A stretch of DNA of 64,000 bases, taken from assembly GCF_054482595.1 (NCBI RefSeq), contig NZ_CM137008.1; one strand, 5' to 3'. Of this stretch, positions 11,362 through 46,021 are shown piece by piece. Position 1 is the stretch's first letter, and each line of letters starts with the position of its first letter. The notes beneath the pieces were generated by a model. That model was not told the origin of the DNA. It did not search any database and saw nothing but the letters and a program-made list of their open reading frames with translations. A program made the position numbers and the translations under genes.

Positions 11362-12525
11362 TTAGCGGGCGGCTTCGTATATACGGCGGCTGACATCCAG
11401 CGTAATGTCATGATTTTCGCCCAGTTGGGTCATGCCGTGCTCTTCCAGTTTTTTCAGCAAAGCCGGGATGGAGCTGCCGTCCAGACCGTAGTCGGAGAGG
11501 TGGGTAGGCACGCCTAATTGCTCAAAGAAATTGCGGGTTGCGGCAATCGCGGCGTCAATACGCTCATCGTCGGAACCTTCAGTGATGTTCCAGACGCGTT
11601 CAGCATATTGCAGCAGCTTAGCGCGCTTGGTATCGCGTTTTTCATTCCACAGTGCAGGCAGGACGATAGCCAGTGTTTGCGCGTGATCCAGACCGTGCAT
11701 CGCAGTCAGTTCGTGGCCCAGCATATGCGTTGCCCAGTCCTGCGGTACGCCAGCGCCAATCAAACCGTTCAGCGCCTGAGTCGCCGCCCACATGACGTTG
11801 GCGCGCACATCGTAGTTTTCTGGCTCTTTCAGGGCTTTCGGACCATCTTCGATCAGCGTCAGCAAAATGCCTTCTGCGAAACGGTCCTGAATTTTGGCAT
11901 CAACCGGTTTGGTAACATACTGTTCCACGGTGTGTACAAAGGCGTCCACTACACCGTTAGCCACCTGACGCGGCGGTAGGGTGTAGGTATAAACCGGATC
12001 GAGCACGGCAAATACGGGCTGAACATGGGCAGAATGGAACGCCTGCTTATCGCCTGTGGTTTTACGGGAGATCACCGCACCGGCGTTGGATTCTGAACCG
12101 GTTGCTGGCAGCGTCAGCACACAGCCCATCGGGATGGCGCTTTTAATCTCTTTACCGCCCGTTTGCAGAATGTGCCACGGATCGATATTTTCCGGATAGT
12201 TAGCCGCTGCGGCGATAAATTTGGTGCCGTCCAGTACAGAACCGCCGCCAACCGCCAGCAGGAAAGTCACTTTCTGTTCGCGAACCAGTTTCACGGCGTT
12301 CATCAGCGTTTCATAAGCCGGGTTTGGCTCAATACCGCCAAATTCCAGCACGTCCATGCCTTTCAGGGCATCCAGAACTTGATCGAGAACGCCGGTTTTT
12401 TTCACGCTGCCGCCACCGTAGGTAATCAATACGCGAGCATCGTGAGGAATTTGTTCGCGTAAACCAGCGATTGCGCCTTTACCAAACAGAATGCGGGTTG
12501 GGGTGTGCAGATTAAAGTTGTTCAT
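11362..12525 (-). CDS. yqhD: NADPH-dependent aldehyde reductase (iron-containing alcohol dehydrogenase family); ORF track start at 12549 is an 8-codon over-extension
   Basis: Translation from [22 protein letters not shown]; Fe-ADH fold motifs; divergent from yqhC. Confidence 0.93.
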
Positions 12526-12661
12526 TACTTGCTCCCTTTGCTGGGCCAATATGAGGGCAGAGAACGATCTGCCTGATGTTTTTCATTGTGATCGCCAGCG
12601 CCCTGGCTCTCAATGCTCATTTCTGCCTATGTCTTGCCTATTTCTCCAGAGTGCTGGAGAA

Positions 12662-13618
12662 ATGCTACAAAATTGCGCACAATCAAATTGCCGCATTATT
12701 CCTAAGAAATTACGCGATATGAAACGTGAAGAGATTTGCCGCTTGCTGGCGGATAAAGTTAATAAACTGAAAAATAAAGAAAATAGTTTGTCAGAACTGT
12801 TGCCCGATGTGCGTTTGTTGTATGGCGAGACGCCTTTCGCACGTACACCGGTGATGTACGAGCCTGGCATCATAATTCTCTTTTCCGGGCATAAAATCGG
12901 TTATATCAATGAACGCGTGTTTCGTTATGATGCCAATGAATACCTGCTGCTGACGGTGCCGTTGCCGTTTGAGTGCGAAACCTATGCCACGTCAGAGGTG
13001 CCGCTGGCAGGGTTGCGTCTCAATGTCGATATTTTGCAGTTACAGGAACTGTTGATGGACATTGGCGAAGATGAGCATTTCCAGCCGTCGATGGCAGCCA
13101 GCGGGATTAACTCCGCCACGTTATCAGAAGAGATTTTATGCGCGGCGGAGCGGTTACTCGACGTGATGGAGCGACCACTGGATGCGCGTATTCTCGGCAA
13201 ACAGATCATCCGCGAAATTCTGTACTACGTGCTGACCGGACCTTGCGGCGGCGCGTTACTGGCGCTGGTCAGTCGCCAGACTCACTTCAGTCTGATTAGC
13301 CGCGTGCTGAAACGGATTGAGAATAAATACACCGAAAACCTGAGCGTCGAGCAACTGGCGGCAGAAGCCAACATGAGCGTATCGGCGTTCCACCATAATT
13401 TTAAGTCTGTCACCAGCACCTCGCCGTTGCAGTATTTGAAGAATTACCGTCTGCATAAGGCGCGGATGATGATCATCCATGACGGCATGAAGGCCAGCGC
13501 AGCAGCGATGCGCGTCGGCTATGAAAGCGCATCGCAATTTAGCCGTGAGTTTAAACGTTACTTCGGTGTGACGCCGGGGGAAGATGCGGCAAGAATGCGG
13601 GCGATGCAGGGGAATTAA
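12662..13618 (+). CDS. yqhC: AraC-family transcriptional activator of yqhD-dkgA; ORF track start at 12491 is probably over-extended, with the likely start at internal Met MLQNCAQ
   Basis: C-terminal AraC-type HTH region; start chosen so that the gene does not overlap the divergent yqhD start. Confidence 0.88.
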
Positions 13619-34669: not shown

Positions 34670-35428
34670 ATGGATGCACTACAAACACAAACTGTTATTA
34701 GTACAACCGCGCCGCAGCCCAACTACATTCCGGGGCTGATTGCGGTGGTCGGGTGTGATGGCACCGGTAAATCCACGCTGACCACCGACCTGGTGAAATC
34801 GCTGCAACAACACTGGCAAACCGAGCGCCGCTATTTGGGGCTGCTCTCCGGCGAAGACGGCGACAAAATCAAACGATTGCCGTTGGTTGGCGTCTGGCTG
34901 GAACGGCGACTGGCGGCCAAATCCTCGAAAACCCAAAGCATGAAAACCAAATCTCCGGCGCTATGGGCGGCGGTGATTATGTACTGCTTCTCGCTGCGAA
35001 GAATGGCGAATCTACGCAAGGTTCAGCGACTGGCGCAAAGTGGCGTTCTGGTGGTCAGCGATCGCTTCCCGCAGGCTGAAATTTCGGGCTTTTATTATGA
35101 CGGACCGGGGATCGGCGTCGAACGTGCGACCGGGAAAATAAGCATGTTTCTGGCGCAGCGCGAACGGCGTTTATACCAACAAATGGCGCAATATCGCCCG
35201 GAATTAATTATTCGCCTGGGCATTGATATTGAGACTGCCATCTCCCGCAAGCCTGACCATGACTATGCCGAGCTGCAGGACAAAATCAGTGTTATGTCGA
35301 CGATTGGCTATAACGGCACAAAAATTCTTGAGATTGATTCCAGAGCGCCCTACAGCGAAGTGCTGGAACAGGCACAGAAGGCGGTTTCTCTGGTTGCCAT
35401 CGTTTCTGACCGCCGAAGTTTAACTTAA
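34670..35428 (+). CDS. yghR: P-loop NTPase, thymidylate-kinase-like fold, function unknown
   Basis: 252 aa; Walker A GCDGTGKST, VSDRFP, SRKPDHD. Confidence 0.8.
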   Translation: MDALQTQTVISTTAPQPNYIPGLIAVVGCDGTGKSTLTTDLVKSLQQHWQTERRYLGLLSGEDGDKIKRLPLVGVWLERRLAAKSSKTQSMKTKSPALWAAVIMYCFSLRRMANLRKVQRLAQSGVLVVSDRFPQAEISGFYYDGPGIGVERATGKISMFLAQRERRLYQQMAQYRPELIIRLGIDIETAISRKPDHDYAELQDKISVMSTIGYNGTKILEIDSRAPYSEVLEQAQKAVSLVAIVSDRRSLT

Positions 35429-35473: not shown

Positions 35474-36823
35474 TTGGCGGGTTTTAACATCAAACATTGG
35501 TTTGCAGATGGCGCGTTTCGCACCATTATTCGCAATAGCGCCTGGTTAGGCTCCAGTAATGTCGTGAGCGCTTTGCTGGGGCTGTTGGCGCTCTCGTGTG
35601 CCGGTAAAGGGATGACGCCCGCCATGTTTGGCGTACTGGTGATTGTGCAATCGTACGCCAAGTCGATCAGCGATTTTATTAAGTTTCAGACATGGCAGCT
35701 GGTGGTTCAGTACGGAACGCCAGCCTTGACCAACAATAATCTGCAGCAATTTCGCAATGTCGTCTCATTTTCCTTCTCGCTGGATATCGTCAGCGGCGCG
35801 GTGGCGATTGTCGGCGGCATTGCCTTACTGCCATTCCTTTCCCATTCATTAGGTCTGGATGACCAAAGCTTTTGGCTGGCGGCGCTGTATTGCACGCTCA
35901 TTCCTTCAATGGCTTCCTCCACGCCGACCGGCATTCTGCGTGCGGTAGATCGCTTTGATTTGATTGCTGTACAGCAGGCGACGAAACCTTTTCTGCGCGC
36001 AGCGGGGAGCGTCGCAGCCTGGTATTTTGACTTTGGTTTTGAGGGTTTTGTTATTGCCTGGTACGTGTCGAATCTGGTTGGCGGCACCATGTACTGGTGG
36101 TTTGCCGCGCGCGAATTACGCCGCAGAAATATCCATAACGCCTTCAAATTGAATCTGTTTGAGTCTGCCCGACACATTAAAGGCGCGTGGAGTTTTGTCT
36201 GGTCAACCAACATTGCCCACTCCATCTGGTCGGCGCGTAACTCGTGCAGCACAGTGTTGGTGGGGATCGTGTTAGGACCCGCTGCCGCCGGGTTATTTAA
36301 AATCGCCATGACATTCTTCGACGCCGCCGGAACGCCAGCGGGTTTGCTGGGTAAAAGTTTTTACCCAGAGGTGATGCGTTTAGATCCGCGCACCACCAGA
36401 CCGTGGTTGTTAGGCGTGAAGTCCGGTTTACTGGCGGTCGGAATCGGTATTCTGGTGGCGCTCGCGGTGTTGATCGTCGGCAAGCCGCTCATTTCGCTGG
36501 TGTTTGGCGTTAAGTATCTCGAAGCGTATGACCTGATTCAGGTGATGCTGGGCGCAATTGTGATCTCGATGCTGGGCTTCCCTCAGGAGTCATTGCTATT
36601 GATGGCGGGAAAACAGCGCGCTTTTCTCGTGGCGCAAACCATCGCCTCAATCGGCTACATCGTATTGCTGTTCATGTTCTGTCATCTGTTTGGCGTGCTG
36701 GGAGCAGCGTTTGCTTACTTCGGTGGGCAATGTCTGGACGTGGCGCTCTCGTTAATTCCAACCTTAAAGGCATTTTTTCAGCGCCATTCCTTGCTTTATA
36801 ACGCAGCCGGAGAGAAATCCTGA
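35474..36823 (+). CDS. yghQ: MOP/Wzx-like polysaccharide or lipid flippase family inner membrane protein; start codon uncertain (ORF track begins at a TTG, first in-frame ATG is 46 codons in)
   Basis: 449 aa polytopic membrane protein; 45 bp after yghR; stop overlaps the start of the next ORF (TGATG). Confidence 0.75.
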   Translation: MAGFNIKHWFADGAFRTIIRNSAWLGSSNVVSALLGLLALSCAGKGMTPAMFGVLVIVQSYAKSISDFIKFQTWQLVVQYGTPALTNNNLQQFRNVVSFSFSLDIVSGAVAIVGGIALLPFLSHSLGLDDQSFWLAALYCTLIPSMASSTPTGILRAVDRFDLIAVQQATKPFLRAAGSVAAWYFDFGFEGFVIAWYVSNLVGGTMYWWFAARELRRRNIHNAFKLNLFESARHIKGAWSFVWSTNIAHSIWSARNSCSTVLVGIVLGPAAAGLFKIAMTFFDAAGTPAGLLGKSFYPEVMRLDPRTTRPWLLGVKSGLLAVGIGILVALAVLIVGKPLISLVFGVKYLEAYDLIQVMLGAIVISMLGFPQESLLLMAGKQRAFLVAQTIASIGYIVLLFMFCHLFGVLGAAFAYFGGQCLDVALSLIPTLKAFFQRHSLLYNAAGEKS

Positions 36824-37647
36824 TGATGAGAAAATATTTCCCGCTTGAGGCGAGCGAGCATCTATTTGTTGCGATTGAGGAAGATGATGTTGTTGATGCC
36901 CAGGTCAGTTTGCCGCCGACTATCGCACTAAGTTGTACCACCGAAATCATCCATGATAATTACGCGTTATGCCTGCAATTCTGGCTCAATGGCGTTGATC
37001 GTCAGGAATTACTTCGTTTAATTCGCAAACAAGCCAAAGGCGATGAGCTGACGACAGACGAGCGTAAACAGTTTAAATACATGCGAGCGCGCTACAAGCA
37101 CCTGCGTTTTGCGCAACGGCTGTATTTAAAGAAGCATCAGGCCGGATTTTTATTCGGCAAAACGACCGTTTTTCTGGGACGTTTTCAGGACGGATTTCGT
37201 AACGGTAAGAAAAATATTGTGTCGTATTACGGCAACCTGTTACGAATTTATTTAAGCTCTCCGGTCTGGTCGTTGGTGAACTATTCATTACGCCATAGCC
37301 AGTTAGAAAGCGTAAGCGGTTTTATTGCCTATCGGCAAAAGCAAATGCATGCCCTGAAAGAGATAATTGCCAAACCGCGACTAACCGGCAGGGAATTTCA
37401 TGATGTGCGAAAAATCATCAGCCAGCAGGTTTCTTATTACGACACCTTAAGATCGCTTGATCCTGAAAATAAAGAGGCGTTACAGATTTCCCGTTTCCTC
37501 GCCGCCATTAATGGCCTGATGGGGGATAAACACGACGACATGGTGGCGGATGATATGGAAAACCGCCAGTCGTATGATGCACCGGTGGCGCTGGATAGCG
37601 ATATTCGCCAGCGCTTAGAGCTGCTGATTTCGCGTTTTCCGCTATAA
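36823..37647 (+). CDS. Hypothetical soluble protein, function unknown
   Basis: 274 aa ORF, no predicted TM segment or signal peptide, start overlaps the yghQ stop; no family recognised from sequence alone. Confidence 0.6.
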   Translation: MMRKYFPLEASEHLFVAIEEDDVVDAQVSLPPTIALSCTTEIIHDNYALCLQFWLNGVDRQELLRLIRKQAKGDELTTDERKQFKYMRARYKHLRFAQRLYLKKHQAGFLFGKTTVFLGRFQDGFRNGKKNIVSYYGNLLRIYLSSPVWSLVNYSLRHSQLESVSGFIAYRQKQMHALKEIIAKPRLTGREFHDVRKIISQQVSYYDTLRSLDPENKEALQISRFLAAINGLMGDKHDDMVADDMENRQSYDAPVALDSDIRQRLELLISRFPL

Positions 37648-37655
37648 CCGGAGCA

Positions 37656-38219
37656 ATGATGTCATCTCGTTTGATTATTGCGCTGATTATCATGCTCTTA
37701 GCCCCGGGTGTGCAGGCACACAATTTCGTCACTGGCAAAACGGTTACCCCTGTTTATATTCAGGAAGGCGGCGAGCTGCTTCTGAATAGCGACGACGAAA
37801 TTCACTACCAAAAGTGGAACAGCACACAATTGGCGGGAAAAGTCCGAATTATCCAGTATATCGCCGGGCGTAAGTCGGCGAAGAAAAAGAACTCACTGTT
37901 AATTAAAGCGGTTGAAGCGGCAAACTTTCCGCAGGATCGTTTTCAGCCCACCACCATTGTGAACACTGATGATGCCATCTTTGGTACTGGCTATTTTGTC
38001 GTTGGCAAAATCGAAAAAAATAAACGGCGCTATCCGTGGGCGCAATTCGTTATTGACGGCAATGGACAGGGACGCGTTGCCTGGCGCTTGCCGGAGCAGA
38101 GTTCAACCATTCTGGTGCTGAATAAAGCTGGGCAAATTCAGTGGGCAAAGGACGGCAGCCTGACGCCGGAAGAGGTAGATCAGGTCATTGCGCTGGCGCA
38201 GAAACTGATCAATGAATAA
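37656..38219 (+). CDS. Secreted/periplasmic protein (possibly YtfJ-family-like)
   Basis: 187 aa; cleavable signal peptide MMSSRLIIALIIMLLAPGVQA; Shine-Dalgarno ccggag upstream; family assignment by recollection only. Confidence 0.6.
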   Translation: MMSSRLIIALIIMLLAPGVQAHNFVTGKTVTPVYIQEGGELLLNSDDEIHYQKWNSTQLAGKVRIIQYIAGRKSAKKKNSLLIKAVEAANFPQDRFQPTTIVNTDDAIFGTGYFVVGKIEKNKRRYPWAQFVIDGNGQGRVAWRLPEQSSTILVLNKAGQIQWAKDGSLTPEEVDQVIALAQKLINE

Positions 38220-38249
38220 AAAACTCAAAGGATTGAGGGCGTTAGTGAG

Positions 38250-39320
38250 ATGAAGCTGGTTGAACACTACATCATGCGTGGTACGCGCCGTCTGGTGCTG
38301 ATTATCGTCGGTTTTCTGATCTTTATTTTCGCCAGCTACTCCGCACAGCGTTATCTGACCGAAGCGGCAAATGGGACATTAGCACTTGATGTTGTGCTGG
38401 ATATCGTTTTCTACAAAGTGCTGATTGCACTGGAGATGTTGTTACCTGTTGGACTGTATGTGTCAGTTGGCGTGACGCTAGGGCAGATGTATACCGACTC
38501 GGAAATTACCGCTATCTCTGCGGCGGGGGGCAGTCCGGGACGCTTGTACAAAGCCGTTCTTTATCTGGCGATACCGCTAAGTATTTTTGTCACCCTTCTG
38601 TCGATGTATGGTCGTCCGTGGGCTTATGCGCAGATTTATCAACTGGAGCAGCAGTCGCAGTCGGAGCTGGATGTTCGCCAGTTGCGGGCAAAGAAATTTA
38701 ACACTAACGATAACGGACGAATGATCCTTTCGCAGACGGTTGATCAGGATAATAATCGCCTGACTGACGCGCTGATTTATACTTCTACTGCCAATCGAAC
38801 CCGCATTTTCCGCGCCCGTTCGGTTGATGTGGTTGACCCATCACCCGAGAAACCGACCGTTATGTTGCACAACGGCACTGCCTATCTTCTCGATCATCAG
38901 GGTCGTGACGACAACGAACAGATCTACCGTAATCTGCAATTACATCTGAATCCGCTGGATCAAAGCCCTAACGTCAAACGCAAAGCAAAATCGGTCACGG
39001 AGCTGGCGCGCTCCGCCTTTCCTGCCGATCATGCCGAACTGCAATGGCGACAAAGCCGTGGCCTGACCGCATTGTTGATGGCGCTGCTGGCCATTTCATT
39101 AAGTCGGGTAAAACCGCGGCAGGGGCGATTTTCAACGTTATTGCCACTGACGTTGCTGTTTATTGCCATTTTTTATGGCGGCGACGTCTGCCGTACGCTG
39201 GTGGCTAACGGCGCGATTCCTCTCATTCCTGGTTTGTGGTTAGTGCCCGGACTCATGCTAATGGGCCTGCTGATGCTGGTTGCACGCGACTTCACTTTGC
39301 TGCAGAAATTTTCCCGATGA
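38250..39320 (+). CDS. LptF-like permease (YjgP/YjgQ family)
   Basis: 356 aa; N-terminal TM bundle, large periplasmic domain, C-terminal TMs; conserved RxGRxS-type segment (RVKPRQGRFSTLLP) typical of LptF/LptG. Confidence 0.7.
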   Translation: MKLVEHYIMRGTRRLVLIIVGFLIFIFASYSAQRYLTEAANGTLALDVVLDIVFYKVLIALEMLLPVGLYVSVGVTLGQMYTDSEITAISAAGGSPGRLYKAVLYLAIPLSIFVTLLSMYGRPWAYAQIYQLEQQSQSELDVRQLRAKKFNTNDNGRMILSQTVDQDNNRLTDALIYTSTANRTRIFRARSVDVVDPSPEKPTVMLHNGTAYLLDHQGRDDNEQIYRNLQLHLNPLDQSPNVKRKAKSVTELARSAFPADHAELQWRQSRGLTALLMALLAISLSRVKPRQGRFSTLLPLTLLFIAIFYGGDVCRTLVANGAIPLIPGLWLVPGLMLMGLLMLVARDFTLLQKFSR

Positions 39321-40396
39321 ATGTTTTCAGTCGCTATTTAATCCGTCATCTCTTTCTCGGTTTTGCCGCCGCCGCAGGGTTATTGCTGCCGCTTTTTACT
39401 ACCTTCAACCTGATTAACGAACTGGATGATGTCAGCCCGGGCGGTTATCGCTGGACTCAGGCGGTGCTGGTGGTGCTGATGACCTTACCGCGTACACTGG
39501 TCGAACTTTCGCCGTTTATCGCCTTATTGGGAGGGATTGTTGGCCTGGGGCAGTTATCGAAAAACAGTGAGCTTACCGCCATTCGCAGCACGGGGTTTTC
39601 TATCTTCCGTATTGCACTGGTGGCGCTGGTTGCCGGGATATTGTGGACTGTTTCGTTAGGCGCGATAGATGAGTGGGTGGCGTCGCCATTGCAGCAACAG
39701 GCGCTGCAAATCAAATCGACCGCCACCGCGTTAGGGGAGGACGATGACATTACCGGCAATATGCTGTGGGCCAGGCGCGGCAATGAATTTGTGACGGTGA
39801 AATCGCTGAATGAACAGGGCCAGCCGGTGGGCGTGGAGATTTTTCATTATCGTGACGATCTCTCGCTCGAATCCTACATTTATGCACGCAGTGCCACCAT
39901 TGAAGACGACAAAACGTGGATCCTGCATGGTGTGAATCATAAAAAATGGCTGAATGGCAAAGAAACGCTGGAAACATTAGATAATCTTGCCTGGCAATCG
40001 GCCTTCACCAGTATGGATCTTGAAGAGTTATCAATGCCGGGCAATACTTTTTCTGTCCGTCAGCTTAATCATTACATCCATTATTTGCAGGAAACCGGGC
40101 AACCCAGCAGCGAATACCGCCTTGCACTGTGGGAAAAACTGGGGCAACCCATCCTGACCCTGGCGATGATTTTGCTGGCTGTGCCGTTTACCTTTAGCGC
40201 CCCGCGCTCGCCAGGGATGGGTAGCCGTCTCGCTGTAGGCGTCATCGTTGGCTTACTCACCTGGATCAGCTATCAAATCATGGTCAATCTGGGTTTGCTA
40301 TTTGCGTTGAGCGCACCTGTTTTCGCGCTCGGTTTACCGGTAGCGTTTGTGTTGATGGCGTTGAGCCTGGTGTATTGGTATGACAGACAATATTAA
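39317..40396 (+). CDS. LptG-like permease (YjgP/YjgQ family); ORF track start at 39236 is over-extended, with the likely start at the ATG overlapping the upstream stop (ATGA)
   Basis: Translation from MNVFSRYLIRHLFLGF; same architecture as LptG, including a NHYIHYLQETGQ segment comparable to the LptG region around YVKYLKSSGQ. Confidence 0.7.
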   Translation: MNVFSRYLIRHLFLGFAAAAGLLLPLFTTFNLINELDDVSPGGYRWTQAVLVVLMTLPRTLVELSPFIALLGGIVGLGQLSKNSELTAIRSTGFSIFRIALVALVAGILWTVSLGAIDEWVASPLQQQALQIKSTATALGEDDDITGNMLWARRGNEFVTVKSLNEQGQPVGVEIFHYRDDLSLESYIYARSATIEDDKTWILHGVNHKKWLNGKETLETLDNLAWQSAFTSMDLEELSMPGNTFSVRQLNHYIHYLQETGQPSSEYRLALWEKLGQPILTLAMILLAVPFTFSAPRSPGMGSRLAVGVIVGLLTWISYQIMVNLGLLFALSAPVFALGLPVAFVLMALSLVYWYDRQY

Positions 40397-40430
40397 ACCC
40401 GCCGTGGCGCAACACCACAGCGGGCTCACA

Positions 40431-41603
40431 TTACTGCTTCAGAGTAGCAAATGCTTGAATGATGGCATCGATTTGCTCACGACTGTGGGCAGCGTTTACG
40501 CTACAGCGCAGCAGCGTGATGCCTGCAGGCGCGGCAGGTGGCAGGATAAGATTCACATAAACGCCCAGCGAAATAAGCTCGCGCCAGATGCGTAAACCGT
40601 CCTCTTTCGAACCGATTATTACCGGCACTACCGGGCTAATATGTGAACTTAACTCATAACCCAGTTTTTGCAGACCGTCATACAGATGGTTGGCATTATC
40701 CATCAGCTTTTGCCGCAGCTCTGGTTGTGTGGCAATAGTTCTTAACGACGAGCGCACGGTCGCAATGCAGGACGGAGAAGGAGAGGCGGTAAAAATATAC
40801 GGGCGGCTGCCGTAGCGCAGCACTTCCATCGCTTCCGAACCGACAGCAAAACCGCCAATCGAGGCCAGACTTTTACTGAAGGTGCCAACGATAATATCCA
40901 CATCATCTTCAACGCCAACGGCTTCAGCCAGTCCGCGCCCCGTTGCGCCTAACACGCCAAACGAATGCGCTTCATCGACAATCAAATAACCACCGAGACG
41001 ACGTTTGATATCAACAATTTCCGCCAGCGGCGCAACGTCACCGAGCATGCTGTAGATACCCTCAACGATGATAATCGCCTCTTTCGCCCGTTCACCGAGG
41101 CGAACCATGCGCCGTTCCAGATCTTTAGCATCGTTATGGCGGAAACGAATAATTTCCGCGCCACCGAGAGAACAGGCGTCATAAATACTGGCGTGGCTGT
41201 CGGCATCCAGTAACACCACGGCGTTATGGTCGGCAAGTGCGCTGATGACGCCTAAATTAGCGGTATAACCGGTTGAAAAAACGATAGCGGTAGGGCGATT
41301 GAAAAACTCGGCAATCTCTTTCTCTAACGCCAGGTGCGGCGCATAACTGCCGTTTGCCATACGAGAACCGGTGGTGCCGGTGCCTTGGGCCGCTAACGCT
41401 GCCTGACCTTCGGCGATGGCATCATGATTAAAGGTTAAACCGAGGTAATTATTGGTCCCGGCCAGAATCACTTTTTTATTGCCGATCCGGCCTTCGGTGG
41501 CGGAATACACTTCATCAATACAGGTGCCAAACGGTGTTAACCCGTTGTCACTAAATTGCAGTCGCTCGCCAGCAAGGCGCGCATATTTATCGTATAGCCC
41601 CAT
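40431..41603 (-). CDS. Alpha-oxoamine synthase (PLP-dependent), serine-palmitoyltransferase-like
   Basis: 390 aa; PLP-lysine motif GTFSKS, RPYIFTAS, GVYVN, PPAAPAG, LLRCS motifs resembling bacterial SPT more than BioF. Confidence 0.8.
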   Translation of the reverse strand: MGLYDKYARLAGERLQFSDNGLTPFGTCIDEVYSATEGRIGNKKVILAGTNNYLGLTFNHDAIAEGQAALAAQGTGTTGSRMANGSYAPHLALEKEIAEFFNRPTAIVFSTGYTANLGVISALADHNAVVLLDADSHASIYDACSLGGAEIIRFRHNDAKDLERRMVRLGERAKEAIIIVEGIYSMLGDVAPLAEIVDIKRRLGGYLIVDEAHSFGVLGATGRGLAEAVGVEDDVDIIVGTFSKSLASIGGFAVGSEAMEVLRYGSRPYIFTASPSPSCIATVRSSLRTIATQPELRQKLMDNANHLYDGLQKLGYELSSHISPVVPVIIGSKEDGLRIWRELISLGVYVNLILPPAAPAGITLLRCSVNAAHSREQIDAIIQAFATLKQ

Positions 41604-41851
41604 TATTTATTCTCCAGCCATGGAAGTAGAGTTTCCATTAATTGCGCAGGGGTTTTGACATCCAGCAGAATATTAATAGGAATGGAAATATCGAATCTGT
41701 CTTCCAGCATCATTAAGAGATCCATCACTTTGATCGACTCCAGGCCAAGATCGTTGACGAGATCGCTGTCGGGCTTAATTTCCACACCGTTTTCGACCAA
41801 ATCCTGTAAACAGGAAAGGATGTAATCCATTACTATTTCACGATTTACCAT
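41603..41851 (-). CDS. Dedicated acyl carrier protein
   Basis: 82 aa acidic protein with phosphopantetheine-attachment-like motif DLGLESIKVMDL; 1-nt overlap with the downstream synthase. Confidence 0.75.
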   Translation of the reverse strand: MVNREIVMDYILSCLQDLVENGVEIKPDSDLVNDLGLESIKVMDLLMMLEDRFDISIPINILLDVKTPAQLMETLLPWLENK

Positions 41852-41882
41852 AGAAACGTTAACACACCTTTAAACAAGACAA

Positions 41883-42797
41883 TCAAAATAGCCCGTTGCG
41901 TAATGCGTGTTCCAGGCTAATCCCGGGAAACCAATTAATATCTTCAGAAATACGGTTATTACTTGCCGACCAGTCAACATGGGTTAATTCACCCAATTTC
42001 GAGCGGGTCAGCATGGGTTCTTTACCTGCCAGGCGACTCAATGCGGTACTGATATCCGCAAGGCAGGTGAGTACCGGCAGAGGAATACCAACCATTCGCA
42101 CGGAACCACAACGGGCGTCGGCGGCAAGCTGTCGTACGCGCTGCCAGTCATAGCCGCCGGGGACGCCATCGCATAATTCATAGGTTTGCGTCTGTACAGT
42201 TTCGGCGCTTAACCACTGACCCACTGCTTGCGCAAAATCGGTGACGTGCAGGAAAGAGAGTTGTGTATCTGGCGCACCAAGTCGTGGCAGCAGGCCGCGC
42301 AGCATCCAGTCAAACAGCGGTTTTAACTCTTTATCGCCGGGACCATACACGGCTGTCGGGCGAAAAACGCCCAGCGTAATTTTGTCAGCCATTGCAGTCA
42401 GCCGTTGTTCGGCGACGTATTTGGAATTTGCGTACCAGGAGAGTTCGGGATGGCGCGCCGCCAGCGAAGAGATAAACAGAAAACGTTGGCAAAAGCCGCT
42501 CTCTTTTGCTGCTTGCATCAGGCGCAGGCTGCCGTCAACGTTACAGTGGGTAAAAATCTCTTCTTTGTGTCCGCGCACTTGCCCGGCGCAATGGACCACC
42601 GCGCTGGCTCCGGCAACCAGTTCGCTAAGCGAATGTGTATCTTCCAGCGAACCGCGCACCCAAGTAAGATTATCATTGACGTGAGCGCGGGCAGTACGCG
42701 TCAATGCGCGAACGTGAAAGCCGCGGGCGAGCAGGTTATCGATAATATATTTACCGATAAACCCGGTAGCGCCCGTCACCGCGACAGTTTGATTCAT
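41883..42797 (-). CDS. NAD(P)-dependent epimerase/dehydratase-family reductase
   Basis: 304 aa; Rossmann motif VTGATGFIG at the N-terminus. Confidence 0.75.
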   Translation of the reverse strand: MNQTVAVTGATGFIGKYIIDNLLARGFHVRALTRTARAHVNDNLTWVRGSLEDTHSLSELVAGASAVVHCAGQVRGHKEEIFTHCNVDGSLRLMQAAKESGFCQRFLFISSLAARHPELSWYANSKYVAEQRLTAMADKITLGVFRPTAVYGPGDKELKPLFDWMLRGLLPRLGAPDTQLSFLHVTDFAQAVGQWLSAETVQTQTYELCDGVPGGYDWQRVRQLAADARCGSVRMVGIPLPVLTCLADISTALSRLAGKEPMLTRSKLGELTHVDWSASNNRISEDINWFPGISLEHALRNGLF

Positions 42798-44515
42798 GCC
42801 AGGGATTCCTGCACATGAAGACTGGCAGCATAAGCCTTCTGATAACGTTTTTTCGCTTCCGCACGGGCAGGCTTGCCGGAGGACGTTCGGGGAATACTGT
42901 GGGGCGGCAACAGATCGATAGCCGCGGTCACGCCAAATTCGCTTTGGATCCGTGCCGCCAGCGCGTGGATAAGCTGCCCGCGACGTTCTTCATCGCTGAT
43001 CCGACACTGGATCTGCAAAATGATTTTTTCCTGGGCGGTAACAAAAGCAATCGCATCGCCAGAATGAATTTCCGGTTCCTGTTCCGCAATATATTCAATA
43101 TCCTGCGGCCAGATATTACGGCCACGAATAATAATCAGATCTTTAATGCGTCCGGTGACATACAGATAACCGTCCAGCAGATAACCGAGGTCGCCAGTGT
43201 CTAACCAGCCCGTCGCGGCAATCTCGTCTTGCGAAGCCTGGTCGCCAAAGTAACCGCTCATCAGACTGGGACCGGAGATGCAAATATGGCCTACCACACG
43301 TTCCGCGACCGGCATACCTGCTTCATTGCGGATTTCAATACCATGTTCCGGCAACGCTTTGCCGCAGTTGACGAAAGTCGATACGGCGCGTGTCTCTGCA
43401 CCCGGCGCGACGGCTTTACCCTGATATTCGAGGATGTCGCGATCCACTTCGTTAACCACAACCCCGGAGGCTTCATCAGAGAAGCTGACAGCCAGCGCAT
43501 TTTCTGCCAGTCCGTAGCACGGCATGAAAGTTTTATTGTCAAAGTTAACCTGACGGAAACATTCAGCGAATTGATGGAGTTGTTCTGCGGAGATGGGTTC
43601 TGCACCAATACCAGCGACGCGCCAGCAGGAAAGATCCAGTTCAGCGAGATCTTTTTCATTCACGCGGCGCTGGCACAATTCATAGCCAAACGGCGGCGCA
43701 ACGGAAACGGTGCCGCGATTTTTACTGATCAATTTAAGCCATTGCAGAGGACGCATGGCAAAATCCTGAGTGCGCAAATAATCTACTGAAAGCTGCGTGG
43801 CGACCGGGGTCAGGAGAAAGCCGACCAGTCCCATATCATGGTAGAAAGGCAGCCAGGAGACGCAGCGGTCGCCAGGGCGTAATTTAATGCCGTCGTGGCT
43901 TATAGCACGTAGATTAGCCATCACTTCGCGATGGGTGATAATGACGCCACGGGGAAAACGGGTGCTGCCGGAGGTGTACTGGAGGTAGGCGATATCGTTC
44001 GGAACTGGACGCTGGAGCGCAACATCGGCTTCCGGTAATGCCTTATACCAGGCGTGGCTTAATACATGCAATTCGGGGTTGTTATGCGTGGCGGCATTGA
44101 CCAGCGGCAACCACTCATCACCAGTGATAATGGCAGCGGGCTGGCAACTTGCCAGTAAACCCTGCAGTTTGGCGCTCCAGGAATCCCGCTGACCGACGCC
44201 CATTGGAATCGCCAACGGGACGGCGACTAAGCCGGCATACTGGCAGGAAAAAAAAGCCTCTACGAACCCGCTACTGGTTTCGGCAATCAGTGCCACGCGA
44301 TCGCCTTTTTTCAGGTTCAGCGATAACAACCGCTTCGCACCAGCTTCGGCACGCGCTTTTAACGTCTGATATTCCAGTTGATCTTCAAGTTGGCAACGTC
44401 TGTCATAAAAATTCATTCCAGCGCTACTCAGAGCGGCGTAGTCCAAAGCATCAACCAGCGTTGGAAAATCGGCATAGCGCATAGGTAGGGAATGCGTAAA
44501 GATTTTATTAGACAT
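42794..44515 (-). CDS. Fatty-acyl-AMP ligase / acyl-CoA (acyl-ACP) synthetase family; start uncertain (44515 ATG preferred over 44542 TTG and 44482 ATG)
   Basis: About 573 aa ANL-superfamily adenylating enzyme; AMP-binding motif YTSGSTRFPRGV; 4-nt overlap with the downstream reductase. Confidence 0.75.
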   Translation of the reverse strand: MSNKIFTHSLPMRYADFPTLVDALDYAALSSAGMNFYDRRCQLEDQLEYQTLKARAEAGAKRLLSLNLKKGDRVALIAETSSGFVEAFFSCQYAGLVAVPLAIPMGVGQRDSWSAKLQGLLASCQPAAIITGDEWLPLVNAATHNNPELHVLSHAWYKALPEADVALQRPVPNDIAYLQYTSGSTRFPRGVIITHREVMANLRAISHDGIKLRPGDRCVSWLPFYHDMGLVGFLLTPVATQLSVDYLRTQDFAMRPLQWLKLISKNRGTVSVAPPFGYELCQRRVNEKDLAELDLSCWRVAGIGAEPISAEQLHQFAECFRQVNFDNKTFMPCYGLAENALAVSFSDEASGVVVNEVDRDILEYQGKAVAPGAETRAVSTFVNCGKALPEHGIEIRNEAGMPVAERVVGHICISGPSLMSGYFGDQASQDEIAATGWLDTGDLGYLLDGYLYVTGRIKDLIIIRGRNIWPQDIEYIAEQEPEIHSGDAIAFVTAQEKIILQIQCRISDEERRGQLIHALAARIQSEFGVTAAIDLLPPHSIPRTSSGKPARAEAKKRYQKAYAASLHVQESLA

Positions 44516-44878
44516 ATACACCACGAAAAAATTGGATATCAAAAATAAAATGACAATAATGCGGTGGATTATATAGGTATAAAAGATAAATGAGATAGTA
44601 TTTTCATTGGTGTGATATTGAACATTGATTAAAATAATGCTTTAAATCTTAACTCTGTTTATTGTGAATAATATTTAATTTATGAATATATTAAGATAAT
44701 GCCCTGGTGGGTCGCATTAAATCCACAATAGTCATGTTGATCGGCTAACGGTGGCGCTGGTGTATCGTAATTATTCATAAATATTATTTTATTTTTCCTT
44801 ATATTCATTGCGTGGATAGTTAAGGTACCGTCCGTTGCTGTTTATTTTCAGCATTAATTATTTGTTATCCACTAAGCT

Positions 44879-46021
44879 ATGGAACGCGATCTGCTGATGA
44901 TTAAAATTGAAAAAGTAATAAATAAAAACGACTTAAAGGCATTTATCGCTTTTCCGTCATTACTTTATCCCGACGATCCAAACTGGATACCCCCTTTATT
45001 CATTGAACGCAACGAGCATTTGTCTGCGAAAAATCCGGGGACGGACCATATCATCTGGCAGGCGTGGGTGGCAAAAAAAGCGGGGCAGATAGTTGGGCGT
45101 ATTACCGCGCAAATAGATACCTTGCACCGCGAGCGTTACGGCAAAGATACCGGTCATTTCGGCATGATTGACGCCATTGATGATCCGCAGGTTTTTGCCG
45201 CGTTGTTTGGCGCAGCGGAAGCGTGGTTGAAGTCACAAGGTGCAAGTAAGATCAGCGGTCCTTTCAGCCTGAATATCAATCAGGAAAGCGGATTACTGAT
45301 TGAAGGTTTCGATACACCACCCTGTGCGATGATGCCGCACGGTAAACCGTGGTATGCCGCGCATATTGAACAATTGGGTTATCACAAAGGCATTGATTTA
45401 CTGGCGTGGTGGATGCAGCGAACCGATCTCACTTTCTCTCCGGCGCTAAAAAAACTGATGGATCAGGTGCGCAAAAAGGTGACCATTCGCTGCATCAATC
45501 GCCAGCGGTTTGCCGAAGAGATGCAGATCCTGCGTGAGATTTTCAACTCTGGCTGGCAGCACAACTGGGGATTTGTGCCGTTTACCGAACATGAATTCGC
45601 GACCATGGGCGACCAACTTAAATATCTGGTGCCGGACGATATGATCTACATCGCTGAGATTGATTCTGCACCCTGCGCGTTTATTGTCGGCTTGCCGAAC
45701 ATCAACGAGGCGATTGCCGATCTGAACGGATCGCTCTTTCCCTTCGGCTGGGCAAAATTGCTGTGGCGTTTGAAAGTCAGCGGTGTGCGAACTGCGCGAG
45801 TACCGCTGATGGGCGTGCGCGACGAGTATCAGTTCAGCCGCATCGGCCCGGTGATTGCGCTGTTATTGATTGAAGCCTTACGCGATCCGTTTGCCCGCCG
45901 GAAGATCGATGCGCTGGAGATGTCATGGATCCTCGAAACCAATACAGGCATGAATAACATGCTGGAACGCATTGGGGCGGAGCCGTACAAGCGTTACCGA
46001 TTGTATGAAAAGCAGATTTAA
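44879..46021 (+). CDS. yghO: GNAT-like acyltransferase-family protein (intact here; an IS5-disrupted pseudogene in K-12, from memory)
   Basis: 380 aa uninterrupted ORF divergent from the synthase operon across a 336-bp AT-rich region; GNAT assignment is tentative. Confidence 0.65.
   Translation: MERDLLMIKIEKVINKNDLKAFIAFPSLLYPDDPNWIPPLFIERNEHLSAKNPGTDHIIWQAWVAKKAGQIVGRITAQIDTLHRERYGKDTGHFGMIDAIDDPQVFAALFGAAEAWLKSQGASKISGPFSLNINQESGLLIEGFDTPPCAMMPHGKPWYAAHIEQLGYHKGIDLLAWWMQRTDLTFSPALKKLMDQVRKKVTIRCINRQRFAEEMQILREIFNSGWQHNWGFVPFTEHEFATMGDQLKYLVPDDMIYIAEIDSAPCAFIVGLPNINEAIADLNGSLFPFGWAKLLWRLKVSGVRTARVPLMGVRDEYQFSRIGPVIALLLIEALRDPFARRKIDALEMSWILETNTGMNNMLERIGAEPYKRYRLYEKQI

Follow-up and report, generated by a model that had tools for sequence, protein, structure and literature searches.

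Transport of sphingolipids to the outer membrane of Gram-negative bacteria was an open question until very recently. The closest described system is that of Caulobacter crescentus. Olea-Ozuna and colleagues (PLoS Pathog 2024; PMC11324152) designated CC_1156, CC_1155 and CC_1168 as LptF2, LptG2 and LptC2, listed CC_1166 as candidate flippase and proposed that phosphosphingolipids reach the outer membrane via these proteins in analogy to lipopolysaccharide (LPS). Uchendu, Isom and Klein (bioRxiv 10.64898/2026.04.12.717747, April 2026) reported that Caulobacter lptF2, lptG2 and lptC2 can be deleted only in the absence of spt or cpgB, and that LptF2 and LptG2 are essential only if an anionic sphingolipid is made. 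LptF2 and LptG2 co-purified, LptB, which exists once in the genome, was recovered with them, and no duplicate of lptB was present. The same preprint described lptF2/lptG2 as occurring in numerous alpha- and gammaproteobacterial sphingolipid loci, found lptC2 confined to Caulobacter and depicted the locus of Escherichia coli UTI89 beside that of Caulobacter (its Figure 2B). A second LptFG complex sharing LptB answers the first step of the transport question.

Here we analyzed a comparable gene pair in a stretch of E. coli DNA of 64,000 nucleotides (NCBI RefSeq assembly GCF_054482595.1, contig NZ_CM137008.1), referred to as the window. It represents the hyb/pitB/glc region of the E. coli chromosome and is 100% identical to several strains. 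The two genes, lptF2 (38250–39320) and lptG2 (39317–40396), both on the plus strand, code for an LptF-type and an LptG-type permease paralog of 356 and 359 amino acids. Judged from sequence, locus context and the Caulobacter analogy, they quite probably provide the two membrane subunits of an additional extractor of the LptFG type, specific to the sphingolipid that the neighboring genes make. For E. coli, the nature of the cargo, the reliance on LptB and the path taken after the inner membrane are inferred. A first-pass annotation made from the letters of this DNA had suggested such a dedicated extractor of the locus lipid, perhaps with LptB acting in trans. This suggestion is supported by paralogy, by the position in a sphingolipid locus, by linkage to spt in other organisms, by conserved coupling glutamates and by the Caulobacter analog. 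It is not new: the transport model, in which a second LptFG exports sphingolipid with LptB in trans, was proposed in 2024 and tested in 2026 in Caulobacter, so that no new principle was discovered here.

Both proteins belong to the LptF/LptG permease family, one being F-type and the other G-type. The product of lptF2 scored 319 bits with the NCBIfam model TIGR04407 (LptF; curated cut-off 230) and the product of lptG2 306 bits with TIGR04408 (LptG; curated cut-off 240), whereas the swapped models gave merely 67 and 89 bits. Pfam PF03739 matched both proteins from end to end (E = 4.7e-54 for LptF2 and 3.2e-69 for LptG2). The profile searches thus placed the two proteins inside the family, as the LptF/LptG architecture noticed in the first-pass annotation had implied. 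AlphaFold models made from homolog alignments, which are predictions and not solved structures, agreed with this assignment. The LptF2 model (pLDDT, a per-residue confidence score, of 89) had its best solved match in the LptF chain 9dok_F with a template modeling (TM) score of 0.82, and the LptG2 model (pLDDT 84) superposed best on the solved LptG chain 6mit_G with a score of 0.85. Six long transmembrane helices are predicted in both single chains, with a periplasmic beta-jellyroll between the third and the fourth helix (beta strands at residues 150–232 of LptF2 and 150–227 of LptG2). A structural comparison of this kind had been recommended along with the annotation; on the level of predicted single-chain folds it matched LptF and LptG including the beta-jellyroll.

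The start codon of lptG2 and the stop codon of lptF2 share the sequence ATGA (39317–39320, plus strand), and the arrangement as two adjacent, overlapping genes on the same strand was found as annotated. The overlap likely reflects translational coupling. A longer open reading frame of lptG2 would begin with a GTG at position 39236. The ATG at 39317 is backed by the RefSeq annotation of identical DNA and by the N-termini of 26 orthologs.

lptF2G2 is a paralogous second copy alongside the universal housekeeping lptFG genes and a single lptB. LptF2 is 29% identical to LptF (b4261) and LptG2 28% to LptG (b4262) of E. coli K-12, the genes of which are located elsewhere in the chromosome next to pepA. 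The second pair resembles the housekeeping LptB2FGC system in its Pfam and NCBIfam families, predicted fold and coupling glutamates. In both cases lptF precedes lptG with an overlap (K-12 lptF and lptG share base 4487318) and the ATPase gene is not adjacent. The pairs differ in sequence, in genomic context and in distribution. Of 5426 complete E. coli genomes, 5425 contained housekeeping lptFG, at a median of one place each, and the same number contained lptB, which is present in single copy as a rule (median of one place). In contrast, lptF2G2 is accessory and occurred in 4131 genomes (76%), in 4105 of them near full length. The spt operon was detected in 4186 genomes and the whole 12-kb locus, covered by at least 80%, in 4050. 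Comparison of two divergent E. coli lineages yielded ratios of nonsynonymous to synonymous substitution rates (dN/dS) of 0.05 for lptF2 and lptG2, 0.025 for spt and 0.046 for yghQ. The low values indicate that lptF2 and lptG2 are under purifying selection.

The pair resides in a set of genes for ceramide synthesis. The aasR-cerR(epi)-acpR-spt operon (40431–44482, minus strand) is located downstream of and convergent to lptG2, with 34 nt between the end of lptG2 and the stop codon of spt. According to RefSeq annotation and profiles, the operon codes for a fatty acyl-AMP ligase/acyl-ACP synthetase, a reductase, a specialised ACP (acyl carrier protein) as well as a serine palmitoyltransferase. 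Spt reached 597 bits with the serine palmitoyltransferase equivalog NF047599 (cut-off 500) and AasR 873 bits with the fatty acyl-AMP ligase model NF006624. The fifth gene, yghO (44879–46021, plus strand), is annotated in RefSeq as candidate N-acyltransferase (aca) and is the ceramide synthase candidate. All five genes lie within 6 kb. Their orthologs in BL21(DE3) were described by Padilla-Gomez et al. (PMC9386255). AasR (ECD_02851), epi (ECD_02852), AcpR (ECD_02853) and Spt (ECD_02854) were characterized biochemically; E. coli AasR, AcpR and Spt yield 3-oxo-sphinganine, with Spt favoring acyl-AcpR, and yghO (ECD_02850) is listed as the aca gene, the counterpart of Caulobacter CC_1154. The "lipid locus" of the first-pass annotation is therefore the E. 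coli sphingolipid (ceramide) locus.

To determine the linkage of LptF/G pairs to sphingolipid genes in other organisms, we scanned 80 loci centered on Spt homologs (53–98% identity; one genome per species) for genes of the locus. In 36 of the 80 loci, from several phyla, a pair was located no more than 10 kb away from spt, and all such counts are lower bounds as many contigs end early. Pairs were present in 11 of 14 loci from Enterobacterales, 13 of 20 from other Gammaproteobacteria, 6 of 9 from Nitrospirota, 3 of 4 from Alphaproteobacteria and 3 of 8 from unclassified Proteobacteria and others. None was detected in loci from Betaproteobacteria (Nitrosomonadales and related; 0 of 18), Desulfuromonadota/Desulfobacterota (0 of 5) and Gemmatimonadota (0 of 2). 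A gene for a YghO-like protein was found in 47 of the 80 loci. Across Enterobacterales, LptG2 orthologs with 63–75% identity exist in Hafnia, Shimwellia, Citrobacter, Serratia, Pantoea, Erwinia, Sodalis and Pluralibacter. Serratia, Hafnia, Citrobacter, Mangrovibacter and Rosenbergiella retained the segment from yghT/S/R via yghQ, the 274-codon gene and the ytfJ-like gene to lptF2 and lptG2 together with aasR-cerR-acpR-spt, in rearranged form. In a metagenome contig, an LptF2 gene product of 37% identity is encoded next to an aasR-epi-acp-spt operon. The contigs of the nearest two non-enterobacterial LptF2 representatives were too short to reveal the gene context.

MsbA-like fused exporters of approx. 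570–600 amino acids are encoded in 20 of the 80 spt loci, and in Enterobacterales YghQ, a protein of the MOP family, takes that position. Outside the Enterobacterales, MsbA-like exporters of 562–593 amino acids were typically encoded beside spt or lptG2 (loci L009, L023, L025, L037, L043, L047, L050, L057, L058, L066 and L074). This suggests that the MsbA-like exporter and YghQ are two interchangeable flippase solutions upstream of LptF2G2. The combination of a flippase-type gene with LptF/G in spt loci is compatible with transport in two steps, first flipping and then extraction. As a separate observation, the metagenome locus L009 carries a sulfotransferase-family gene (12441–13361) directly 3′ of lptG2, which hints that lineages differ in the anionic head group put on the exported sphingolipid.

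The relationship of these pairs was examined in a neighbor-joining tree of 60 LptF and LptG sequences, comprising the spt-linked proteins and the housekeeping proteins of E. coli, Vibrio cholerae and Pseudomonas aeruginosa, the latter two copied from PDB alignments. All non-alphaproteobacterial spt-linked LptF proteins clustered with E. coli LptF2 in a single clade (200 of 200 bootstraps), and the gammaproteobacterial housekeeping LptF proteins formed a separate one (189 of 200). The E. coli LptF2 clade includes the spt-linked proteins of Nitrococcus, Halieaceae and metagenome-assembled genomes (MAGs) of Nitrospira, whose genes also have aasR-cerR-acpR-spt and yghO-like genes as neighbors. Unlike the E. 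coli pair, these pairs from other Gammaproteobacteria and Nitrospirota usually adjoin an MsbA-like fused ABC exporter instead of YghQ, and the YtfJ, 274-amino-acid and YghRST genes are missing.

The E. coli pair shares several features with Caulobacter LptF2/LptG2 (CCNA_01214/CCNA_01213, identical to CC_1156/CC_1155). Both are part of a sphingolipid locus and are located near aasR-cerR-acpR-spt and cerS, both lack a dedicated lptB next to one housekeeping LptB, and both loci contain a candidate flippase, CC_1166 in Caulobacter and YghQ in E. coli. The two also differ. The cpg head-group genes are missing from the E. coli locus, which contains yghT/S/R and the genes for the 274-amino-acid and the YtfJ-family protein instead. 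Furthermore, the 64-kb window codes for no LptC homolog and hence no LptC2, which is not a strict requirement. The complex and its binding to LptB were demonstrated by experiment in Caulobacter and are putative for the E. coli pair.

Several points weigh against a dedicated sphingolipid extractor in E. coli. Support for the E. coli pair comes from inference, and the experiments were performed with the Caulobacter pair. Identity to the Caulobacter-type LptF2/LptG2 encoded in a Caulobacter MAG locus, whose gene order matches the published CC_1166–CC_1154 map (L065), amounts to approx. 20–24%, and the alphaproteobacterial spt-linked pairs branched outside both the E. coli-type and the gammaproteobacterial housekeeping clades (200 of 200 bootstraps). 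Due to the low identity and the separate branching, the Caulobacter results transfer by shared context and not by demonstrated orthology. Moreover, a spt-linked LptG clade matching that of LptF was weakly recovered (77 of 200 bootstraps). The pair is not universal either, since the 18 betaproteobacterial spt loci were devoid of it within 10 kb. As the Caulobacter head-group genes are absent from the E. coli locus, the cargo is chemically undefined, and our literature search found no report that naturally expressed genes lead to synthesis or export of a sphingolipid in living E. coli.

A more far-reaching version of the model concerns the relation to Caulobacter. The E. coli-type clade, consisting of Enterobacterales, other Gammaproteobacteria and Nitrospirota, might be non-orthologous to Caulobacter LptF2/LptG2. 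Duplication of LptFG and its recruitment for the export of sphingolipids would then have happened two or more times, and the enterobacterial cargo would be a lipid of unknown chemistry, whose head group would be provided by YghT/S/R, the 274-amino-acid protein and the YtfJ-family protein. We regard this scenario as tentative and rather unlikely. The housekeeping LptF and LptG sequences of the tree are gammaproteobacterial, and it therefore does not discriminate between one and two duplications. If the scenario holds true, roughly three in four E. coli strains would have the capacity for this lipid, of which we found no report in the literature.

The preferred reading, a second LptFG-type extractor for the sphingolipid of the locus, implies the following pathway. 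On the cytoplasmic side of the inner membrane, AasR, AcpR, Spt, CerR and YghO would synthesize (dihydro)ceramide, to which enzymes of the locus would attach a head group. YghQ would flip the lipid to the periplasmic leaflet, from where a heterodimer of LptF2 and LptG2 would extract it, driven by the single housekeeping LptB dimer docked to the conserved coupling helices. The lipid would then move through the beta-jellyrolls to the outer membrane, probably via the shared LptC/LptA/LptDE bridge. The full beta-jellyrolls predicted for LptF2 and LptG2 are consistent with a hand-off to a periplasmic bridge.

The last steps of this pathway are where a different function of the pair has to be considered. 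LptF2G2 might simply clear the locus lipid from the inner membrane for detoxification or turnover, or feed it into a route other than the Lpt bridge, and would then be no true exporter. In line with this idea, no paralog of LptC, LptA, LptD or LptE is encoded in the locus, so that whatever follows extraction would rely on shared components or on other ones; the Caulobacter work left the steps beyond the inner membrane unestablished, and a gene for a secreted YtfJ-family protein always precedes lptF2 in Enterobacterales. On the other hand, the models suggest that both proteins kept the complete beta-jellyroll, the element linking LptFG to the periplasmic bridge. Moreover, Sphingomonas, which has no LPS, retains a complete Lpt pathway according to the preprint (bioRxiv 10.64898/2026.04.12.717747). 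Taken together, a mere clearance function or a route other than the Lpt bridge appears improbable.

The energy source of the putative extractor is the second point at which the pair could depart from the Lpt paradigm. The first-pass annotation had stated that the locus lacks an ATP-binding cassette (ABC) ATPase gene, and this holds across the entire 64 kb. Searches of the window with E. coli LptB, LptC and LptA by tblastn revealed no homolog (best E = 1), and no combination of Walker A and LSGGQ motifs was present in it; the Walker A motif occurred only in YghT, YghS and YghR. From the missing gene in locus and window one could conclude that lptF2G2 draws on some ATPase which is encoded elsewhere and differs from LptB, or that it needs no ATP and functions, for instance, passively or driven by protons. 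However, in the housekeeping system, too, the lptFG operon is separate from the ATPase gene. E. coli lptB belongs to the kdsD-kdsC-lptC-lptA-lptB cluster approx. 1.1 Mb away from lptFG. The absence of an ATPase gene is thus normal for the family, not distinctive, and carries no information.

From published genetics and structures, LptF E84 and LptG E88 are known as the coupling-helix glutamates that dock into the groove of LptB. E84 of LptF aligns with E85 of LptF2, and E88 of LptG with E85 of LptG2. E85 of LptF2 was invariant in 41 of 41 LptF2-like representatives and the LptG2 glutamate was conserved to at least 90% (27 sequences). In the coupling region, 11 of 21 LptF residues are identical in LptF2 compared to approx. 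30% along the whole protein. In agreement with these findings, Caulobacter LptF2 and LptG2 pull down LptB. All but one of the ABC matches in the 80 spt loci were fused transporters of 562–749 amino acids. The exception was an LptB-sized open reading frame of 247 amino acids with 29% identity to LptB, located approx. 9 kb from spt in a locus lacking an LptF/G pair (L026). We also considered a hidden LptB2 beside lptG2 in other taxa and rejected it, as none of the 80 spt loci combines an LptB-sized ATPase with LptF/G. Preserved coupling glutamates, an lptB gene in single copy and the lack of any ATPase of its own together favor shared use of the housekeeping LptB and speak against an ATP-independent device. 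Of the two options raised in the first-pass annotation, operation without ATP is therefore the disfavored one, and we consider any partner other than LptB very improbable.

Finally, the name given to both proteins in RefSeq ("LPS export ABC transporter permease") and their scores above the NCBIfam equivalog cut-offs would suggest a redundant or alternative LPS exporter, for instance for modified LPS, to which we attach hardly any credence given the identity of merely 28–29% to the housekeeping pair, the invariable position inside the spt locus in Enterobacterales and the spt linkage across phyla, the joint gain and loss with spt in E. coli (pair in 4131 genomes, spt operon in 4186, locus intact in 4050) and the absence from K-12. 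K-12, which does not possess the second pair, shows no LPS defect. With its low identity, its separate clade and its absence from K-12, the lptF2/lptG2 pair does not classify as functional equivalent (ortholog) of the housekeeping LPS exporter. The residues lining the cavity were also inspected as a possible cargo signature. K34, K40, K41 and R133 of LptG, presumably the cationic residues touching LPS in LptB2FG-LPS structures, correspond to N, D, D and L in LptG2. This candidate indication of lost contacts to LPS phosphates was dropped. The housekeeping LptG of P. aeruginosa likewise has residues other than lysine at these positions of the first transmembrane helix, so that the change in LptG2 is not diagnostic.

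The region upstream of lptF2 contains further genes that accompany the pair. yghQ (35474–36823, plus strand) codes for a MOP/Wzx-like candidate flippase of 449 amino acids with a weak MOP flippase match, and its orthologs match Pfam Polysacc_synt. It is followed by a gene for a conserved protein of 274 amino acids (36823–37647, plus strand), which gave no NCBIfam match, no precomputed Pfam match for the orthologs and no match among PDB sequences. This gene is syntenic in Enterobacterales as well as in Luteibacter and Dyella. Directly upstream of lptF2 lies the gene for the secreted YtfJ-family protein (37656–38219, plus strand; TIGR01626, 213 bits), for which comparison with PDB sequences returned nothing useful. 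Both genes were found directly 5′ of lptF2 in all 11 enterobacterial spt loci with a pair, and their products could be accessory factors of synthesis or transport.

Three paralogous P-loop proteins are encoded further upstream by yghT (33059–33751, minus strand), yghS (33925–34638, plus strand) and yghR (34670–35428, plus strand). They share the Walker A motif GxDGxGKST and a weak similarity to dTMP kinases, lack an ABC signature and are no ABC ATPases. The three genes accompany the sphingolipid locus in Enterobacterales, Luteibacter and Dyella. A homology to the Caulobacter ceramide kinase CpgB was considered and rejected, since CpgB is similar to diacylglycerol (DAG) kinases with a GGDG motif and YghR/S/T are P-loop proteins. 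Apparently, yghS, yghR, yghQ, the 274-codon gene and the YtfJ-family gene constitute one operon with lptF2G2. A scan of the region for promoters gave results no better than shuffled sequence. A pattern scan revealed a strong, GC-rich hairpin of 16 pairs (40394–40428), which takes up the 34 nt separating the stop codons of the convergent genes lptG2 and spt and plausibly acts as a bidirectional terminator.

In E. coli K-12, this region is disrupted. Comparison of MG1655 (3129043–3132408) with positions 35474–46021 of the window placed an IS5 element between yghO and a truncated yghQ. The 274-codon gene, the ytfJ-like gene, lptF2, lptG2, spt, acpR, cerR and aasR are absent at this site. The comparison indicates that K-12 lost the core of the sphingolipid locus by an IS5-associated deletion and that K-12 yghQ, yghR, yghS, yghT and yghO are its remnants. 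The replaced stretch begins at the 3′ end of yghQ and reaches aasR, which accounts for the obscurity of the pair in studies of K-12. On phenotypes of the locus specific to E. coli, literature searches found only a knockout screen in K-12, in which yghQ/R/S/T showed no effect, and a search for bCerS or CerR in E. coli returned nothing relevant.

About 75% of complete E. coli genomes, including BL21(DE3) and uropathogenic E. coli and excluding K-12, contain an intact locus under purifying selection together with its own putative extractor, which makes a surface sphingolipid of E. coli plausible. Antibiotics targeting LptB or LptFG may encounter a second client complex in most clinical strains. 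Since the pair exceeds the equivalog cut-offs, the NCBI pipeline assigns two gene pairs of putatively different function under one name to approx. 4100 E. coli genomes (accessory pair: "LPS export ABC transporter permease LptF/LptG"; for example L001, 20001–22147). With one "LPS export" name for both pairs, studies of lptFG that deal with essentiality, drug targets or the pangenome can be led astray. One database entry (P0018) displayed 72% of LptG2, with 100% identity, fused to a GspC domain under the name "type II secretion system protein GspC"; this fusion is probably an artefact of assembly or rearrangement.

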